Made by a program: the position numbers and the translations under genes
IMG/VR virus record: IMGVR_UViG_3300020048_000037
Reading direction: 5' to 3' (one strand)
Length of the DNA stretch: 20,000 bases
Origin: an uncultured virus (IMG/VR IMGVR_UViG_3300020048_000037)
Lineage: Duplodnaviria; Heunggongvirae; Uroviricota; Caudoviricetes
Shown: positions 2,412 to 16,573 of the stretch, piece after piece
How positions within the stretch are numbered: the stretch's first letter is position 1
Layout: every line of letters begins with the position of its first letter
The notes under the pieces: generated by a model
Told to the model about the DNA's origin: nothing
Database searches by the model: none
The model's input: the letters and a program-made list of their open reading frames with translations, nothing else

Positions 2412-2636
2412 ATGAAAAGACTTAAAAATTATTTAAATGAGCTGTCACCTAAAAATTGGACAAGAGAATATACAGGTATTTATACATTAACTATATGGGT
2501 ATCAATATTATGCTTATTGTTATTATTACGTTATACATCTAATTATACACCAAGTATGTCTGATGTATTAATAATGATAATATTTACTTTTGCAGGAATG
2601 TTAACAGGATATTTTTTTGGTAAACACATGAAATGA
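2412..2636 (+). CDS. Small membrane protein (2 predicted TM helices)
   Basis: Two hydrophobic stretches; ATGA overlap with the downstream gene. Confidence 0.7.
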   Translation: MKRLKNYLNELSPKNWTREYTGIYTLTIWVSILCLLLLLRYTSNYTPSMSDVLIMIIFTFAGMLTGYFFGKHMK

Positions 2637-3448
2637 AAATACAAGAAATAACAGATAAAATAATAAAAAGAATATCAGATTATGTTGAATTTGATATATA
2701 TGAAGCATTTGATCAATCAGACTATATAACCATATATGGTGGTGCTGTGAGAGATAGTATAGCAGGCTTAGATATTCACGATGTTGATATTCTTTGTATG
2801 TCAGAATCCGCAATAGCACTTAGAAATTATATAGTTGAACATTGTGGTTATAAAAATCTAGATTTATATGATTTAGATTCTATTAATATGTACAAAGGAA
2901 TATCATTAATATCAGAGCCTTGGACATTTATAAATAGTAACAATAAAATTATACAAATTATCAGACCAAATTATACTCATTGTAATGGTATTATTACAAA
3001 TTATAATAATTATAATAATATTACTAGTTCTTATATTAAATCATATGTTGATTTGATAAAAAATGTTGATTTATCATGTTGTGGTGTTTATATAGAAAAA
3101 ATAGATATGTCAATTGATAATTCAAATAATAAAAAAAGAATAATACTTAAAGAATCATGTAAAAATGCTATATCTCATTGTTTATCTAAATCATTTGAAA
3201 TTAATAATTGGGCAAAATTATATAATCAAGAAAGAACATTATATAGAGAATGGAAATTAGAAAATAGAGGTTGGTTTAATTTATATCCTACAAAATTTGG
3301 GCATAATCAAAACAATAATATATTAAAACACAATAGACACATTAAAATATCTCTATTAGAATTAGAGTCAGATTATAATTATAAAATGTGGACAGATTAT
3401 GAATATTCAAAGCACGAAAAAAAGACAAATATAGATTATCCTTTTTAA
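2633..3448 (+). CDS. Nucleotidyltransferase, poly(A) polymerase/CCA-adding-enzyme head-domain-like
   Basis: Signature IYGGAVRDSIAGLDIHDVDIL (GGxVRD...DxD) and later VDLSCCGV (D[FL][TS]xx-like). Confidence 0.8.
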   Translation: MKIQEITDKIIKRISDYVEFDIYEAFDQSDYITIYGGAVRDSIAGLDIHDVDILCMSESAIALRNYIVEHCGYKNLDLYDLDSINMYKGISLISEPWTFINSNNKIIQIIRPNYTHCNGIITNYNNYNNITSSYIKSYVDLIKNVDLSCCGVYIEKIDMSIDNSNNKKRIILKESCKNAISHCLSKSFEINNWAKLYNQERTLYREWKLENRGWFNLYPTKFGHNQNNNILKHNRHIKISLLELESDYNYKMWTDYEYSKHEKKTNIDYPF

Positions 3449-8171: not shown

Positions 8172-8450
8172 ATGAAGTATATTAAAAAATTTGAATTTTT
8201 AGAATTTGATATACCAGAGAAAATTAAAAAATTGGCTATCGAATTAGATTTTAAATTTAGAACAACAACAAAAGAAGATATGAAAAATAAGACTATCTTC
8301 CAAATAATAAAAGAACTTGGCTTTGATAGTGGAGAATTAAGTGGAGTTGAACTAGGGCAAATTCTAATGTATCAGATGAAATTCAATAAAATGACTGATA
8401 ATGAATTCTTAAAATTCTATAATAATTATAAAAAAAATCCTGAAATTTAA
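8172..8450 (+). CDS. Hypothetical protein with MKYIKKFE N-terminal motif
   Basis: ORF track; preceded by AATATATAC. Confidence 0.75.
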   Translation: MKYIKKFEFLEFDIPEKIKKLAIELDFKFRTTTKEDMKNKTIFQIIKELGFDSGELSGVELGQILMYQMKFNKMTDNEFLKFYNNYKKNPEI

Positions 8451-8466
8451 ATTTCAGGATTTTTTT
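8431..8466. terminator. Bidirectional terminator (perfect 36-bp palindrome) closing the tRNA operon
   Basis: AAAAAAATCCTGAAATTT|AAATTTCAGGATTTTTTT between the convergent CDS and the tRNA cluster. Confidence 0.85.
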
Positions 8467-8467
8467 G

Positions 8468-8538
8468 TTCCATTGTATAGATTCAAACTATACCTCTAAC
8501 ATTCAATGTGTTATGTGCTATCGCTACACCACAAGGAA
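8468..8538 (-). tRNA. trnQ: tRNA-Gln(TTG), atypical (A33, A19:U56, one acceptor-stem mismatch)
   Basis: Minus strand folds TTCCTTG-TG-GTGT-AGCGATA-GCAC-A-TAACA-CATTGAA-TGTTA-GAGG-TATAG-TTTGAAT-CTATA-CAATGGA-A; anticodon at 8504-8506. Confidence 0.7.
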
Positions 8539-8548
8539 ATATAAAATG

Positions 8549-8619
8549 TTCTTACTCTAAGATTCGAACTTAGTCACTCATTTTCAGATGATGAGATGCT
8601 ACCATTACATCAAGAAAGA
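8549..8619 (-). tRNA. trnQ: tRNA-Gln(CTG)
   Basis: TCTTTCT-TG-ATGT-AATGGTA-GCAT-C-TCATC-ATCTGAA-AATGA-GTGA-CTAAG-TTCGAAT-CTTAG-AGTAAGA-A; U1:A72; C31/A39 mismatch; anticodon at 8585-8587. Confidence 0.75.
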
Positions 8620-8620
8620 G

Positions 8621-8706
8621 TCGCCTTGGTGGGGTTCGAACCCACAAGCTCATTATGAGCATCAGTTTCAAAGACTGACATGTTTAGCCAATTCCATCAC
8701 AAGGCA
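8621..8706 (-). tRNA. Class II (long variable arm, Leu-type body) tRNA with Gln anticodon TTG
   Basis: TGCCTTG-TG-ATG-GAATTGGCTAAA-CAT-G-TCAGT-CTTTGAA-ACTGA-T-GCTCA-TAA-TGAGC-TT-GTGGG-TTCGAAC-CCCAC-CAAGGCG-A; anticodon at 8669-8671. Confidence 0.9.
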
Positions 8707-8716
8707 GTGATATTTG

Positions 8717-8788
8717 TTGCTCTATTCGGATTCAAACCGAAACTGCGGACTTCAAAGATCCGATTGCTATCATTACAAATATAGAGCA
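8717..8788 (-). tRNA. trnQ: tRNA-Gln(TTG) with A19:U56
   Basis: TGCTCTA-TAT-TTGT-AATGATA-GCAA-T-CGGAT-CTTTGAA-GTCCG-CAGT-TTCGG-TTTGAAT-CCGAA-TAGAGCA-A; perfect acceptor stem with U1:A72; anticodon at 8753-8755. Confidence 0.85.
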
Positions 8789-8826: not shown

Positions 8827-8883
8827 AAAAAAACCCAATCTATAAGATTGGGTAAAAAAACAGACACGACTCTAACCCAATCA
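8827..8883 (-). promoter_or_regulatory. Transcription attenuator: terminator (8827-8853) plus antiterminator segment (8874-8883)
   Basis: Minus strand ACCCAATCT-TAT-AGATTGGGT-TTTTTT terminator. An upstream GATTGGGT overlapping the leader stop codon is identical to the terminator 3' arm and can sequester the 5' arm ACCCAATC. Confidence 0.8.
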
Positions 8884-9383: not shown

Positions 9384-9818
9384 ATGAAACACATCAAATC
9401 ATTCAAATTATATGAAACAGGAGAATGGAATAAAAATATAACATGGGAATATGTTAAAAATAATCCTGATGATGATAGTCAAGAATCTAATATGATATTT
9501 TTTTTAAGTGAAACACTATCAGATTTAATATTATTATTAAATGATGATTATATTAAAATCCTTGATATAAAAGGATATGATATATCAACAGGACCATATG
9601 CTAATGTGAGTATTTTAGGAAATTTTTATAAAATATGGATTTCTAATGAAAGAGATAGCGATTTATATATTGAAAATTTTCCAATTGATAATTGCTCAGA
9701 AATTGACTTAATACCTGGATATATTGGTAGTATTAAAGAAATAGCACACATTATTAATAGCGTTGCTATTAGTGGTGGTTTTGAATTATATGACTCAACA
9801 AAAAAATTTAATGTATAA
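9384..9818 (+). CDS. Hypothetical protein, KFN[LIV] family
   Basis: Starts MKHIKSFKLYE, ends TKKFNV*. Confidence 0.85.
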   Translation: MKHIKSFKLYETGEWNKNITWEYVKNNPDDDSQESNMIFFLSETLSDLILLLNDDYIKILDIKGYDISTGPYANVSILGNFYKIWISNERDSDLYIENFPIDNCSEIDLIPGYIGSIKEIAHIINSVAISGGFELYDSTKKFNV

Positions 9819-10960
9819 TGAAATATTTAATATATTTTAATGAAAGTATTGAAAATAATATAGATAACTCATCAAATGATTTTACAACATTATATGAAGA
9901 TGATAATTGGATTGTAACAAAAGCAAAATCATACGAGTCTTTAGAAACTTGGTCAGAAGATGGTAATATAAATATGAAAACACATCGTTATGATTTTTCA
10001 AATTTATATTTAAATACAAATAAAAAAGATAATACTAAAATTGTATTAAATTTCGATAGAACAGATTTTTATAATATTGATGATGATGTTATTTATTTGA
10101 AAGATTTTTTTGATGAAAATAATTATTTATTTAAATTTTATAGTAGTATTATACCATGTGATAATATTGTAAAAGACAATAATGATTATTGGCTAGTAGT
10201 TAAAGATTATTCATTTTTTGAAGATTACTTTAAATTAGATAGTGGAACAAGACATGATTTAATTAAAGAAATATTATCAGATGAAGGTTATAATGCAGAT
10301 TACTCTACATCTAATTTTGAGTTAGATGAAAATATTAAATTAAATAAGGATAATTTAGATATTGTTAAAATTTTATTGTTTCTTGAAAAAATTGAAAATG
10401 ATTACGAATATAATATTGATGATATATCTGATTATGATGATGTTGTTAGTATAATAGAAGAATATGATTTAGATGATATTATAAGAATATTTAAAAGTTG
10501 TATTTGTACAGGACATGAAAGAGCAGATAGTAATGCTGCATGGAACGATATTTTTAATGAAATTGTTTCTTTTTTTGGTATTGATGAAAATATTATTAAA
10601 TGGGATCATTATAATAATAGCATAGGACAAATGTTATGGTTAAAATTCAATAGTGAATCTGATGCAAATAATGCTAAATTTATTATACTCAAACCAGATG
10701 ATAGTTATGAAGATGATATAATTGAATATTCACCACCTTATTATGGATATTCTGGAGATTCAAAATATATAGTAGAAACATTTAATGAAGAATTTATTGA
10801 TAGAATAACAGAATATGATAATGTTGATGTAAATTATGATAAAATAATAGATTATTATAATTTTTTTAAAGAAAAACAAGAAATAAATCCGAATATAAAA
10901 ATCACAGATATATATGGTGATTATAAAATATATTTAGATACTAAAAAATTTAACATATAA
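9818..10960 (+). CDS. Highly acidic hypothetical protein, KFN[LIV] family (380 aa)
   Basis: Starts MKYLIYFNES, ends TKKFNI*; D/E/Y-rich. Confidence 0.85.
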   Translation: MKYLIYFNESIENNIDNSSNDFTTLYEDDNWIVTKAKSYESLETWSEDGNINMKTHRYDFSNLYLNTNKKDNTKIVLNFDRTDFYNIDDDVIYLKDFFDENNYLFKFYSSIIPCDNIVKDNNDYWLVVKDYSFFEDYFKLDSGTRHDLIKEILSDEGYNADYSTSNFELDENIKLNKDNLDIVKILLFLEKIENDYEYNIDDISDYDDVVSIIEEYDLDDIIRIFKSCICTGHERADSNAAWNDIFNEIVSFFGIDENIIKWDHYNNSIGQMLWLKFNSESDANNAKFIILKPDDSYEDDIIEYSPPYYGYSGDSKYIVETFNEEFIDRITEYDNVDVNYDKIIDYYNFFKEKQEINPNIKITDIYGDYKIYLDTKKFNI

Positions 10961-10961
10961 T

Positions 10962-11480
10962 ATGATAACAATTTTTAAAAAATTTCAATTAAATGAAACA
11001 ATGATTTCTCATGATATTAGTGAATTACATAACGGTAATTATTTAAATTTAGAAAGAACAATAAATGGTGATTTGAAAATTAGTTTGACTGATGAAGGTA
11101 GAGAAAAAGTTGAAGAAGATGGAATAAGTGAAGAAACATTTTTTGATTATTTTGAGGATATTACATCAAATTCTAGTTTATTGTACATTACTGATATATC
11201 TGAAATAGGTGCAATGATGAATGCTCCTGCTATAGTAATAGGTTATTATTGTGATGATGACGGTAATTATGTTGATATTAATAATGAAGATTACTCAGAA
11301 ATTTTTTATTATACTAATTATATTATACGTGATTTTACAGAAGATTTAAAAACTGATGAATATGTAATATTTAAATCATCTGGTATACTTACACCAGAAG
11401 AATTAGAAGAATTTGAAGATAGTAAATTAACACCACAAGAAAATGAACTAAAAAAAGCATCAAAAAAATTTAATTTATAA
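10962..11480 (+). CDS. Acidic hypothetical protein, KFN[LIV] family
   Basis: Starts MITIFKKFQLNE, ends SKKFNL*. Confidence 0.85.
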   Translation: MITIFKKFQLNETMISHDISELHNGNYLNLERTINGDLKISLTDEGREKVEEDGISEETFFDYFEDITSNSSLLYITDISEIGAMMNAPAIVIGYYCDDDGNYVDINNEDYSEIFYYTNYIIRDFTEDLKTDEYVIFKSSGILTPEELEEFEDSKLTPQENELKKASKKFNL

Positions 11481-11481
11481 A

Positions 11482-11805
11482 ATGATAACAAATTTTAAAA
11501 TATTTGAATCTAATGATGATATATGTTTTTCAGTAGGTGACGAAGTTACTTGTATTAATGGTTCATTTTCAACCACAGGACCAGTTAGTTTTAAGAAATA
11601 TATAGTCATGAGAATTTATGCCAAAAAATGGAATAGTTTTCCAGCTAAAACTATTGTTATTGAACATCAATATGTAACAAAGAAAGATATTGATTATTTT
11701 CATTGTGATGTTAAAGACATAGAAACAAATATTATTTTAACAGATTGGCTTTGTGAAAGATTTATATCAGAATTAAGACAATCAACAAATAAATTTAATT
11801 TATAA
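11482..11805 (+). CDS. Hypothetical protein, KFN[LIV] family, tandem paralog 1
   Basis: MITNFKIFESNDDICFSVGDEV...TNKFNL*. Confidence 0.85.
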   Translation: MITNFKIFESNDDICFSVGDEVTCINGSFSTTGPVSFKKYIVMRIYAKKWNSFPAKTIVIEHQYVTKKDIDYFHCDVKDIETNIILTDWLCERFISELRQSTNKFNL

Positions 11806-11806
11806 A

Positions 11807-12136
11807 ATGATAACAAATTTTAAAATATTTGAATCTAATGATGATATATATTTTTCAGTAGGTGACGAAGTTATATGCATTGATGGAGAAAAAGATGATA
11901 TTAATTCTAATATACCTAAAGAATTACATAAATACTTAGTATTGAGAATTTATGAGGAAATTTTTAATAGCGACTGTGATTCAGAAATAATTAATCATCA
12001 ATATGTAACGAAAAAAGATATTGATTACTTTTTTGTTGATGTTAAAAATATTAAAACTAATATGATTTCAAAGCAATGGCTAGCCAGTAGATTTATGACA
12101 GAATTAAGAACAGCAACAAACAAATTTAATTTATAA
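11807..12136 (+). CDS. Hypothetical protein, KFN[LIV] family, tandem paralog 2
   Basis: MITNFKIFESNDDIYFSVGDEV...HQYVTKKDIDYF...TNKFNL*. Confidence 0.85.
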   Translation: MITNFKIFESNDDIYFSVGDEVICIDGEKDDINSNIPKELHKYLVLRIYEEIFNSDCDSEIINHQYVTKKDIDYFFVDVKNIKTNMISKQWLASRFMTELRTATNKFNL

Positions 12137-12498: not shown

Positions 12499-12675
12499 AT
12501 GAAAGAGACAAATAGAAAAATTGTAATATCAATATCTTTGAATCCAAAATTATTAGAAACTATAAATAATACAGTTTCTAATCGTTCTAAGTTCTTAGAG
12601 AATTGTATAATATCTGAATTGTGTAAAAGTTCTACAATCAAAGAAGAACTTCATAAAAAAATGTTAATATTATGA
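12499..12675 (+). CDS. Ribbon-helix-helix-like small protein (58 aa)
   Basis: MKETNRKIVISISLNPKLLETINNTVSNRSKFLENCIISELCKSSTIKEELHKKMLIL*: ISISL strand and NRSKFLE helix start; ATGA overlap with the endonuclease gene. Confidence 0.75.
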   Translation: MKETNRKIVISISLNPKLLETINNTVSNRSKFLENCIISELCKSSTIKEELHKKMLIL

Positions 12676-14084
12676 TATTAACAAAAATAGTAGAAGTTAA
12701 AATAGCCAATAAAAATATAAATTATTATAAAGTTAAAGGTTATAAGTGTGAAGTTAATGATATAATATGTGTTAAAATAGAAGATTTAACTAAAGGTAGT
12801 CACGAAAAAATAGTAGTTAAATGTGACAATTGTGGTAAAGAAAATGAAATGACATATCATTCTTATAATTGTAATTTTTATAATTGTAATTTTCATTATT
12901 CTTGTTCTAAATGTTCGGTAGAAAAAACTAAAAAAACAAATTTGGAAAAATATGGTGTTGAACACGTATCTCAATCGAAAGACATAAGAGAAAAAATTAA
13001 AAATACTAGTTTGGAAAGATATGGAGTTGAAAATGCATCTCAAAATATAAGTGTACGTAATAAAATTAAAGAAACTTGTTTGAAAAAATATGGAGTTGAA
13101 AGTTATTCAAAAACAGATGAATATAAAGAAAAATTTAAAGAAACAATGATGACACGATATGGTGTTGAACACCAAATGTATACTCAAGAAACTAAAGATA
13201 AAATTAAAGAAACTTGTTTGAAACGATATGGAGTAGAATACATTTTACAAGATATAGACATAAGGAACAAATCTAAAATAACTTGCTTGGAAAAATATGG
13301 AGTAGACAATTATTCAAAAACAGATGAATATAAAGAGAAATTTAAAGATACTATGTTGAATCTATATGGTGTTGAATATCCTACTCAAAATTATGAAATT
13401 AAAGAGAAAATTAAAAAAATTAATTTAGAAAAATATGGTTTTGAATATCCTATACAGAATTCAATTATTTATGAAAAAGTTAAAAATACAAATTTGAAAA
13501 GATATGGTGTTGAACATGTTTCACAAAATAAAAAAATAAAAAATAAAAAAATAAAAACTTGTCTTTTTAATTTTGGTGTTGAATATCCTACCCAATGTGA
13601 TCAAGTTCAAGATAAGATTAAAGAAACATGTTTAAAAAAATATGGAGTGGATAATTATTCTAAGACAGAAGAATGCAAAGAAAAATTTAAAGAAACAATG
13701 TTGGAACGTTATGGTGTTGAAAATCCTCAACAAAGTGAAGAAATTTTTGAAAGAACACAAAAATCAGCGTTTCAGTTAAAGAATTATAAAAATTATTTAT
13801 ATAGAGGAACTTATGAATTAGATTTTCTTATTAAATTTAGTGATAAAATAAAAATTGAGAAGGCTAAGTCTATTGATTATTTCTTCGATAGTAAAAATAA
13901 AAAATATCATCCTGATTTTTATCTACCTGATTATAATTTCATAATCGAAATTAAAAGTAGTTATACTTATGAGTGTGAAAAAGAACAAAATGATGCTAAA
14001 AAAGAAGCCACTATAAATAGTGGCTATAATTTTTTATTCATTGTTGATAAAGATTATACTGAATTGTTTCTAATATTGAAATAA
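12672..14084 (+). CDS. Putative free-standing homing endonuclease: N-terminal Zn ribbon, 12 x 23-aa KYGVE repeats, C-terminal PD-(D/E)xK nuclease
   Basis: CDNC...CSKC; repeats of type KETCLKKYGVExxSQ; C-terminal YE...YHPDFYLPDYNFIIEIKS. Confidence 0.8.
   Translation: MILTKIVEVKIANKNINYYKVKGYKCEVNDIICVKIEDLTKGSHEKIVVKCDNCGKENEMTYHSYNCNFYNCNFHYSCSKCSVEKTKKTNLEKYGVEHVSQSKDIREKIKNTSLERYGVENASQNISVRNKIKETCLKKYGVESYSKTDEYKEKFKETMMTRYGVEHQMYTQETKDKIKETCLKRYGVEYILQDIDIRNKSKITCLEKYGVDNYSKTDEYKEKFKDTMLNLYGVEYPTQNYEIKEKIKKINLEKYGFEYPIQNSIIYEKVKNTNLKRYGVEHVSQNKKIKNKKIKTCLFNFGVEYPTQCDQVQDKIKETCLKKYGVDNYSKTEECKEKFKETMLERYGVENPQQSEEIFERTQKSAFQLKNYKNYLYRGTYELDFLIKFSDKIKIEKAKSIDYFFDSKNKKYHPDFYLPDYNFIIEIKSSYTYECEKEQNDAKKEATINSGYNFLFIVDKDYTELFLILK
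12930..13760 (+). repeat. Intragenic 69-bp degenerate tandem repeat (12 units)
   Basis: [YF]G[VF] codons recur every 69 nt from 12951 to 13710. Confidence 0.85.
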
Positions 14085-15531: not shown

Positions 15532-15816
15532 ATGGTATATGATGAACGAGAAACAGATTATGTTAAACACATAAAGAATAGAACTGCATTAGGTAAATTA
15601 TACGATCAATGTGTGTCACATGGACTTAATTGTAGTGGAGAAGGATGGATGGAGTGGACAAAATTAGCTGATGAATTTGTAAGTATTTTATATGACTTAG
15701 AACATGGACGTAAAATAAATTTAGACATTCTAATAAAATCATATGATACTAAGTTACCAAACAAAATAATTGTAGTACAAAGATTAATAAAATTGATGAA
15801 AATGACAAATGAGTAA
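15532..15816 (+). CDS. Hypothetical protein (94 aa)
   Basis: ORF track; ends VQRLIKLMKMTNE. Confidence 0.75.
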   Translation: MVYDERETDYVKHIKNRTALGKLYDQCVSHGLNCSGEGWMEWTKLADEFVSILYDLEHGRKINLDILIKSYDTKLPNKIIVVQRLIKLMKMTNE

Positions 15817-16573
15817 AAAAACGATTAAAGGTAAAAATTATGAATTTACTCCTGAATGGAGTGGATTTGATATAAATTATGAAGTTGCTGGTTATTTTGA
15901 TCCTAGACCAGTTCTTCAAATATATTTTATTTGGGGTAAATTATTTATTAAGTTACCTTGGAGACATTATAAAAAAATTGAACTAGAAAAGGATATTAAA
16001 GATATCAGGAAAGAAAAATTATCTACATTATGTAATAAAAAAATAAAAATTAAAAAGAAATATAAAAAAGAACTTTATGATCAATGTCAAACACCAAGAT
16101 ATGGTGTAGGAATTTACGATAAAATGTTAACATTTCGTTGGGGTTATAATTCTAAATCATTTCGTTTTCCATGGTATTATATATGGACAAGAACAAGTGT
16201 ACTTTGTATAGATGAAGTTACTTGGTATAATGAAACAATAAAAACTGGACATATGGAATTTTATGACACTAAAAAATGGGAGGGAAAATTATTTAGTGAA
16301 ACACATCCTTTTAAATATACAACAAAATACGGTGAAGAACAAAATTGTTTAGCAACAATAACTGTAGAAGAAAGAGAATGGAGATGGGTATGGTTCACTT
16401 GGTTGAAATATACTAGAAAAATAAGGAAAGACATAGAAGTAAAATTTAGTGATGATATAGGTGAGCGTAAAGGCTCATGGAAAGGTGGTACAACTGGATG
16501 CGGATACACAATGAGAAAAGGAGAAACTCCATATGACACATTAAAAAGAATGGAAAGAGAAAGAAAATTTTAA
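15809..16573 (+). CDS. Hypothetical Trp-rich phage protein (254 aa)
   Basis: ORF track; GERKGSWKGGTTGCG motif; basic insertion containing DIRKEKLSTL. Confidence 0.8.
   Translation: MSKKTIKGKNYEFTPEWSGFDINYEVAGYFDPRPVLQIYFIWGKLFIKLPWRHYKKIELEKDIKDIRKEKLSTLCNKKIKIKKKYKKELYDQCQTPRYGVGIYDKMLTFRWGYNSKSFRFPWYYIWTRTSVLCIDEVTWYNETIKTGHMEFYDTKKWEGKLFSETHPFKYTTKYGEEQNCLATITVEEREWRWVWFTWLKYTRKIRKDIEVKFSDDIGERKGSWKGGTTGCGYTMRKGETPYDTLKRMERERKF

Follow-up and report, generated by a model that had tools for sequence, protein, structure and literature searches.

A 20,000-nucleotide (nt) stretch of DNA from an uncultured virus (IMG/VR record IMGVR_UViG_3300020048_000037), referred to below in its full length as the window, contains at positions 8621–8706, on the minus strand, a gene for a class II transfer RNA (tRNA) with the glutamine anticodon UUG. 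In bacteria, the long variable arm of class II tRNAs is reserved for Leu, Ser, Tyr, and Sec tRNAs. The gene was confirmed to be real and under constraint, and it belongs to a family that, judged from sequence comparison, is best seen as a new and widespread phage variant of tRNA-Gln on a Leu-type, long-armed scaffold. The window gene appears on balance to be a glutamine isoacceptor, and the element carrying the window is read as a huge bacteriophage and not as a giant virus of eukaryotes.

A class II tRNA(UUG) and its phage family

The assignment of the gene draws on ARAGORN, Rfam, direct reading, conservation, and covariation within the family. Direct reading gives a length of 86 nt; ARAGORN calls an 87-nt tRNA with the anticodon ttg, and the match to Rfam RF00005 scores 50.6 bits (E 2.2e-08), above the gathering score of 29. 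The acceptor stem (8700–8706 and 8622–8628) is formed by UGCCUUG/CAAGGCG, with seven pairs of which the first is U1·G72, and the discriminator A73 lies at 8621. The D-arm (8680–8697) has a stem of three pairs (A10:U25, U11:A24, and G12:C23, with G13·A22 unpaired) and the D-loop AAUUGGCUAA; the anticodon UUG (8669–8671) is carried by the stem UCAGU/ACUGA and the loop CUUUGAA. The variable region (8646–8661) consists of 16 nt, U-GCUCA-UAA-UGAGC-UU, and thus exceeds the 10 nt that mark class II and forms its own stem-loop, with a 5-bp stem. The T-arm (8629–8645) reads GUGGG-UUCGAAC-CCCAC, and U48 stands opposite A15. The acceptor and T stems have the 7/5 geometry that is standard throughout the class II UUG family. 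Direct reading thus recovered every feature that had been listed in an earlier, sequence-only reading of this DNA—the D-stem and D-loop, A15:U48, the variable arm, A73, the anticodon loop, and the U1:G72 pair—and places the gene on the minus strand, on which that reading was silent. The gene does not encode CCA, and the next tRNA gene follows after a single intervening base. The minimum free energy fold of the bare gene sequence differs from the cloverleaf and retains the acceptor stem and the variable-arm hairpin (z −2.62); a non-cloverleaf minimum is common for unmodified tRNA sequences, and the fold was given no weight.

Comparisons between four lineages showed 93–98% identity for the class II gene and only 43–89% for the class I Gln tRNAs on either side of it; a 640-residue protein encoded about 10 kb away shows 59–61% identity between the same lineages. 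The few differences in the class II gene fall in loops or preserve pairing, as in the change of G7:C66 to G7·U66, and in a contig from a different study the gene differs only at G26A, with eight substitutions and two indels in the neighboring class I gene. The gene is kept in at least 12 viral contigs, and an exact search with its 3′ part returned seven IMG/VR contigs in which the class II UUG gene is followed by a CUG gene. The anticodon is UUG in all homologues, namely in those seven contigs, in 12 of the 30 loci of a homologue search, and in the contigs of the other study; the Leu anticodon that, according to the sequence-only reading, would have betrayed an error or private mutation was looked for and was found in none. 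The whole four-gene array to which the gene belongs is also present in three related records (G003/G004 and G009), again with Gln anticodons throughout. Within it, the class I neighbors swap C34 and U34 between lineages, while the class II gene is constantly UUG: the first gene is UUG in G003 and CUG in G009, and the third the reverse (L043 1416–1750; L188 1280–1640). Such flips are what Gln isoacceptors would be expected to show. In one lineage, the array is reduced to the class II UUG gene and a CUG gene, a statement that applies to the array only, the genomes being incomplete. Searches with the class II tRNA against E. coli genomes and with the exact 22-nt D-arm against bacterial genomes returned no match.

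Further members were collected with a pattern that combined a Leu-type D-loop word, CTTTGA at anticodon-loop distance, and GGTTCGA at class II distance. The pattern matched 22 loci in viral contigs and 48 in metagenome contigs, and ARAGORN called a tRNA with the motif in all but 9 of the 70. From these, 36 distinct sequences were found; with one sequence having an odd 8-nt loop (L273) dropped and the window sequence added, the family comprises 36 members, located in many unrelated contigs that include complete phages of 320–365 kb. The members share a Leu-type D-arm (UGGAAUUGG), A15:U48, the loop CUUUGA(A/C), a variable arm of 12–17 nt, 7/5 stems, and an A/U or wobble first pair, and the window sequence aligns with the 35 others over its full length and shows these traits. 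Standard pairs fill 99.3% of the 828 pair cells, and 19 of 23 pairs change on both sides, values reached by none of 500 shuffles; slid controls also fell far below them. All three core pairs of the variable arm covary, with 97.2% of their cells paired, as does the D-stem pair 10:25 (G:C in 20 and A:U in 15 of the 36 members), and U48, a position outside the search pattern, is invariant (36/36). Variant patterns with CUG, CUA, or UUA anticodons yielded one more locus only, on a 35.6-kb viral contig (L434 51–133), encoding a long-armed tRNA with the anticodon CUA, G1·U72, and A73—that is, a Leu-type amber suppressor. A literature search, with most subscription journals and all supplements outside its scope, returned no long-armed tRNA-Gln and no paired tRNA formats in phages.

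The isotype of the body was judged from blastn matches, pairwise identities, and nearest neighbors in a tree. Against 50,697 annotated phage records, the long weak blastn matches comprised 21 annotated tRNA-Leu genes and no Gln, Tyr, or Ser genes, the remaining matches being four spurious ones in tail genes and ten short ones confined to the T-arm; ARAGORN assigned UAG or UAA anticodons to the six matches that were fetched. One tRNA-Leu(UAG), from Aeromonas phage APT65, has the anticodon arm CCAGU-CUUAGAA-ACUGG, which is A35U plus one stem pair away from the UCAGU-CUUUGAA-ACUGA of the window gene. The D-arm word GTGATGGAATTGG....ACAT, searched in one genome per bacterial species, was present in ten recognizable tRNAs, of which nine are tRNA-Leu; the one exception, a class II tRNA(UUG), belongs to a prophage of Ruminococcus sp. 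AM36-2AA. In a comparison with 159 tRNAs from five tRNA arrays of phages, the highest identity of the window gene, 95%, was to its orthologue; a Leu tRNA (73%) and a Tyr tRNA (72%) came next, and no class I Gln tRNA exceeded 66%. A tree was built of 105 class II tRNAs after masking of their anticodons. For 34 of the 36 members the closest tRNA outside the family is a Leu tRNA, and for the other two a Tyr tRNA; the tree is poorly resolved (84 columns), and only this nearest-neighbor tally was used. The window gene also has the Leu core (A14, A15:U48, G18G19, and the 3-bp D-stem) and A73, and lacks the Leu anticodon (NAG or NAA, with A35) and G1, having U1·G72 instead. By these comparisons the body is of Leu type, with a modest margin over Tyr, and the initial description of a Leu-type class II body with a Gln anticodon is borne out by the blastn matches, the D-arm motif, and the tree. 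An origin from the phage's own class II tRNA-Tyr was considered, given an anticodon stem and T-arm identical to those of the Tyr gene in G003; it was rejected, as many phage tRNAs for Gln (class I) and Tyr have the same arm and the D-arm, blastn matches, and tree point to Leu, with Tyr a close second.

Glutamine or leucine identity

The element is read as a huge bacteriophage, and therefore bacterial rules of tRNA identity apply. At the acceptor end, the family has U1 in 28 of 36 members and G1 in two, and G2 in 31. The pair 1:72 is U:A in 22 members, A:U in 6, U·G in 4 (the clade of the window gene), U·U in 2, and G·U and G:C in 1 each, and position 73 is G in 19, A in 11, and U in 6. As controls, the same D-arm and T-arm pattern was run with UAA or UAG anticodons, giving at least 119 loci and, from these, 107 distinct tRNAs with a sound acceptor stem. 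Among the matches listed, to which all control counts below refer, these Leu tRNAs have G1 in 98 of 107, G2 in 32, C2:G71 in 69, and A73 without exception (107/107). Set against these controls, the family seems to have kept a Leu-like core, lost the Leu marks of the acceptor end, and gained Gln-like ones.

The window gene shares U1, G2:C71, C3:G70, A73, and the loop CUUUGAA with the first class I tRNA-Gln of its own array, from which it differs at position 72, and it carries U35 and G36, the anticodon bases read by E. coli glutaminyl-tRNA synthetase (GlnRS). Its body departs from class I, having a 16-nt arm in place of a variable loop of 4–5 nt. In tRNA-Gln, U1-A72 is described as a mark read by GluRS2, a glutamyl-tRNA synthetase, and by amidotransferases (PMC9976931). 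The first pair of the window gene is likewise weak and has U1, but position 72 is G and not the A of the E. coli mark. The weak U1·G72 pair, listed as an oddity in the sequence-only reading, is perhaps better read as a Gln-type mark. The codons are also of the Gln kind: CAA is the main Gln codon, with 96 occurrences as against 9 of CAG in the window and 1715 as against 272 in G003, and the 14 CAA columns of the 640-residue protein family (168 cells) contain Q 90, K 12, R 9, N 6, and E 6 times, with L outside the eight commonest residues, a pattern of substitution that appears Gln-like.

Several points weigh against a glutamine identity or limit the case for it. The window gene lacks G3:C70, G73, G10, and U1:A72 of the E. 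coli GlnRS set and has only its G2:C71, although the window's class I tRNA-Gln likewise has C3:G70 and A73. The clade of the window gene retains A73 together with A14, A15:U48, G18G19, and the Leu-type D-loop, which are all the known determinants of E. coli leucyl-tRNA synthetase (LeuRS), and leucylation of the window tRNA is expected on E. coli rules, which may not be those of the host. The search pattern fixed parts of the D-loop, anticodon loop, and T-loop, giving a partial picture of the family, and left the acceptor stem and discriminator free. Fisher tests of the family against the Leu controls gave p values from 3e-09 to 3e-22, which overstate independence, the family sequences being related. 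The family is not a single clade in the quick tree of 105 class II tRNAs. Finally, the benefit proposed for the long-armed format, namely a safeguard should a host factor attack or restrict the tRNAs of a particular body format, is a guess reached purely by inference.

Three other explanations were weighed against that of a glutamine isoacceptor. According to one, the gene is a decaying duplicate, a private mutation, or an assembly error of a tRNA-Leu(UAG), the single change A35U being enough to turn CUUAGAA into CUUUGAA. This is very improbable: UUG is found in all homologues and in many samples, all stems are intact, the gene is the best conserved of the array, and the pairs covary over 36 sequences. 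The intact stems had been held against decay from the start, and the invariant anticodon, conservation, and covariation now refute it. A second explanation, unlikely yet far less so than decay, is that the tRNA delivers leucine at CAA, being charged by LeuRS in deliberate or tolerated mistranslation or with a mixed Leu and Gln identity. The body has its closest relatives among tRNA-Leu, and the gene possesses A73, A14, A15:U48, G18G19, a 3-bp D-stem, and a long arm; E. coli LeuRS is described as depending crucially on A73 and on the tertiary core and as ignoring the anticodon, the acceptor stem, and the arm (PMC9976931). A precedent exists in the nev-tRNAs of nematodes, class II tRNAs derived from tRNA-Leu with Gly or Ile anticodons, which were reported to be charged in vitro with Leu only (PMC3333845). 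However, 25 of the 36 family members lack the A73 present in all 107 Leu controls, and the G1 of 98 of these controls is replaced by U1 in the window gene. Moreover, the array is all-Gln, and one lineage retains no UUG gene in it besides the class II gene. CAA, finally, is the dominant Gln codon and occupies polar, Gln-like columns, and Leu at every CAA would burden the whole proteome. Thus, of the two possibilities raised by the sequence-only reading, a Gln acceptor on a foreign scaffold is favored by the acceptor ends and the all-Gln array, and insertion of Leu at CAA as emergency mistranslation is disfavored. Charging with Gln is favored because the acceptor ends of the family are Gln-like (U1, a weak first pair, G2, and mostly G73) and the array is all-Gln; some leucylation may occur in the clade of the window gene, because A73 and an intact Leu core are present and would suffice on E. 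coli rules.

A third explanation is that the RNA does not decode at all, but serves as a tRNA-shaped decoy or sponge for a host defense protein that targets tRNAs, or as an aminoacyl donor for a non-ribosomal reaction. Relatives encode RtcB, a polynucleotide kinase, a CCA-adding-type enzyme, a PPK2-HAD RNA-repair protein, Tad4, and Acb3, and the class I Gln tRNAs present alongside mean that decoding alone leaves the second format unexplained; phage enzymes can use charged tRNA for other chemistry, as Mom does with Gly-tRNA (PMC13219725). This explanation is improbable, given a canonical 7-nt anticodon loop with U33 and A37 and an invariant UUG, cognate acceptor-end marks that are kept family-wide and are relevant only if the RNA is charged, and the finding of no conserved partner gene adjoining the array.

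In the mechanism proposed, the gene encodes a functional tRNA of a huge bacteriophage, whose family would have obtained its core (D-arm, A15:U48, variable arm, and T-arm) from a tRNA of Leu type. The anticodon and acceptor end of the family would have been remolded to Gln type, with U1 or some other weak first pair, with G2, and in most members with a discriminator other than A. The gene would be co-transcribed with three class I Gln tRNAs as a terminator-bounded unit, and its product would be matured by RNase P, 3′ trimming, and CCA addition, the last because no CCA is encoded. The mature tRNA would most likely be charged with Gln, by GlnRS or by a non-discriminating GluRS and an amidotransferase, would decode CAA, the dominant Gln codon of the phage, and would serve as a glutamine isoacceptor in a second format beside the ordinary one.

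The tRNA array, its surroundings, and the element

The class II gene is the second of four minus-strand tRNA genes, all with Gln anticodons. The first (8717–8788) is a class I tRNA-Gln(UUG) with an Rfam score of 46.2 bits, U1:A72, G2:C71, C3:G70, A73, and the loop CUUUGAA; ARAGORN missed it in the window and called its orthologue in G003. The third (8548–8619), called by ARAGORN, is a class I tRNA-Gln(CUG) that starts one base after the class II gene. It shows a U5·U68 mismatch and a C·A mismatch in the anticodon stem and is absent from the Rfam matches, whereas the copy of this gene in relatives has neither mismatch and scores 52.9 bits in Rfam. The fourth (8468–8538) is a class I tRNA with UUG, an Rfam score of 35.9 bits, and the loop CAUUGAA, in which A occupies the near-universal U33 position; it also has a C4·U69 mismatch. 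In G003 and G009 the loop of the orthologous gene is normal (UUUUGGA), and the window copy may be a decaying one or one with an unusual loop. Upstream of the array, a minus-strand terminator-like hairpin with a T run (8833–8853) closes the preceding minus-strand unit, and directly after the fourth tRNA gene a second minus-strand hairpin of 16 pairs with T runs (8431–8466), kept in relatives, ends the array.

The window has a GC content of 22% and is densely coding under code 11. It contains a homologue of the Acb3 family of inhibitors of the cyclic-oligonucleotide-based anti-phage signaling system (CBASS) at 15809–16573 on the plus strand (PF25187, E 1.6e-43) and, at 12672–14084 on the same strand, a homing endonuclease of the DUF7487 kind in which KYGVE repeats are numerous; G003 has at least seven DUF7487 open reading frames (ORFs), some of which adjoin pieces of a split PolB. 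A 271-residue ORF (2633–3448, plus strand) has the nucleotidyltransferase motif GGAVRD...DxD, in common with the CCA-adding-type ORF of G003, and its match to the head domain of PolyA_pol falls short of the cut-off (E 0.018); it may encode a divergent tRNA nucleotidyltransferase, 6 kb from the CCA-less tRNA array. A run of small paralogous ORFs (1466–2316 on the minus strand; 8172–8450 and 9384–12136 on the plus strand), among them the tandem pair 11482–11805 and 11807–12136, encodes proteins that start with MKYIK.FE or MITNFKIFESNDD and end with KKFNL, KFNI, or KFNV, and searches of Pfam and PHROG with these ORFs gave no match. The sequencing runs that contain the window stretch are aquatic metagenomes. 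A further tRNA is present on two contigs from the study that supplied the window. Over its D-arm and anticodon arm (44 nt) it has five differences from the window gene, and beyond this region it diverges on both sides (at 8657 and 8700); it is probably a related long-armed tRNA of the same community, and perhaps a Leu tRNA.

The reading of the element as a huge bacteriophage comes from the gene content of the related 330-kb record G003, which includes the T4-like replication proteins gp32, UvsW, PolB, PhoH, and a type II topoisomerase, the anti-defense protein Tad4, and the RtcB, polynucleotide kinase, CCA-adding-type, and PPK2-HAD proteins named above, as well as Acb3 and OmpA. No aminoacyl-tRNA synthetase was found among the 100 largest ORFs of this record. 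A giant virus of eukaryotes had been considered on account of the low GC content, a genome size of about 700 kb implied by CheckV, and distant homologues of the 640-residue protein in giant-virus records. It was ruled out by gp32, UvsW, PhoH, Tad4, Acb3, and OmpA in G003, by the enrichment of terminator-like hairpins (12 against 1.6 expected), and by the lack of enrichment of the Mimivirus-type AAAATTGA motif (5 against 9.4 expected). Searches for capsid proteins of nucleocytoplasmic large DNA viruses gave no match, but were run without a positive control and were given no weight. No match was returned when a 521-nt region was searched against the phage collection at E 1e-5, when the 640-residue protein was searched against phages, or in a single-protein locus search. 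Stop-codon recoding was also considered as a context and set aside, code 11 already giving dense ORFs and the reading of TAG as Q adding little. A tRNA with the amber-suppressor anticodon CUA is present in relatives (L008 1501–1572, corresponding to G002:4949–5019) and in G011, G013, and G014, and TAG is rare as a stop codon: in the window it ends 1 of 27 ORFs, and in G003 it ends 14 of 451, compared with 122 for TGA.

Long-armed tRNAs in large phages and comparison with known systems

Long-armed tRNAs for other amino acids were found in the same and in other large phages. G003 encodes such tRNAs with Met, Asn, and Glu anticodons (L054, G003:52000–61000). The complete jumbo phages G011, G013, and G014, with 42–53 Rfam tRNA matches each, have long-armed copies for Asn, Gln, His, Cys, Trp, Glu, Val, Lys, Ile, Met, or Pro (L435–L446), and in all three the long-armed Gln gene adjoins a class I tRNA-Gln(UUG). 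The long-armed copies in large phages are 82–96 nt in length, and most have a class I neighbor of the same anticodon; the D-arms of some resemble those of Ser tRNAs and not those of Leu tRNAs. As read from the sequences, the long-armed Cys tRNA has U73, the His tRNA C73, and the Trp tRNA A1:U72 with G73. U73 for Cys, C73 for His, and A1:U72 with G73 for Trp are the marks proper to those anticodons.

Further tRNA genes of this kind deserve mention. In G011 (328 kb, complete; L435–L436), all five Leu tRNAs are 74–75 nt long and have no long arm, and the Gln, Asn, and Pro sets each include a long-armed copy. A 91-nt long-armed tRNA in G007 (L187 1083–1173) has the His anticodon GUG, C73, and the same D-arm (UGAUGGAAUUGGCUAAACAUG) as the window gene. 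Genes of 93–100 nt that are tRNA-like and were not called by ARAGORN occur in G003 (L055 2415–2514, G003:320914–321013) and in G002 (L012 and L018); one of them has a 29-nt variable arm and a 6-base anticodon loop, and another about 27 extra bases in the anticodon region.

Tentatively, and with more doubt than confidence, it can be proposed that large phages keep a parallel, long-armed tRNA set for class I amino acids, with cognate anticodon and acceptor marks retained, as a counter-defense that would let translation continue when an immune nuclease, a transferase, or another host factor that reads body format disables class I tRNAs. A host attack based on format is conceivable because Schlafen proteins in animals are reported to cleave type II tRNAs, which would make them nucleases specific for body format. 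The A73 variant found in the window might moreover accept both Gln and Leu.

Several known systems resemble the phage family in part. The nev-tRNAs share with it a conserved, Leu-derived class II body with the anticodon of a class I amino acid, and are moreover expressed. They differ in being eukaryotic nuclear genes for rare codons that keep their Leu identity, whereas the phage family has lost A73 in 25 of 36 members and G1 in 34 of 36, reads the commonest Gln codon, and is found among Gln tRNAs. The window gene falls outside the nev-tRNA group also by its phage context and by a family acceptor end unlike that of Leu. A class II body can be a GlnRS substrate, and a long arm is no bar, as illustrated by a tRNA-Ser amber suppressor that was turned into a Gln acceptor by U35 and Gln-like pairs 1-72 and 3-70 (PMC9976931). 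That tRNA is a laboratory construct with a Ser body and the anticodon CUA; the phage family is natural and conserved and has a Leu-like body and the full UUG. The original work on the conversion of the tRNA-Ser suppressor to Gln identity is said to be that of Rogers and Soll in 1988.

Anticodon shifts, or tRNA remolding, are known, for example, from eukaryotic genomes (PMC3923123). The likeness lies in a change of amino acid by anticodon substitution, followed by adjustment of identity elements; such shifts are not known to occur outside a single structural class except in mitochondria and eukaryotic nuclei, whereas in these phages a class II body would have come to serve an amino acid of class I. 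The tRNA-Leu(UAG/UAA) genes of phages and bacteria have a near-identical D-arm (UGAUGGAAUUGG...ACAU), A15:U48, T-arm, and long arm, and are set apart by G1, C2:G71, A73, and the Leu anticodon, as counted among the matches listed. Canonical class I tRNA-Gln resembles the window gene in UUG, U1 with a weak first pair (to G72 and not A72 in the window gene), G2:C71, and location in a Gln cluster, and the window gene differs from it in the 16-nt arm, 3-bp D-stem, Leu-type D-loop, A10:U25, C3:G70, and A73. The allo-tRNAs of Mukai et al. (2017) are reportedly long-armed bacterial tRNAs with assorted anticodons, obtained by metagenome mining, with an 8/4 or 9/3 geometry and Ser identity; the phage family has 7/5 geometry and a Leu-like core. 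Such allo-tRNAs are also mentioned in PMC7590224.

A conserved long-armed family that reads a Gln codon and whose acceptor end appears to have moved from Leu to Gln type contrasts with the textbook rule on the long arm, and would represent a natural experiment in which tRNA identity has been rewritten on a foreign body. For annotation it carries a warning: isotype models would say Leu where the anticodon says Gln, and such a conflict is no error. The family may also be a source of tRNA scaffolds for engineering. Overall, jumbo phages in which ordinary and long-armed copies are paired prompt the question of which host factor distinguishes the two formats, a question that bears on tRNA-targeting anti-phage immunity.

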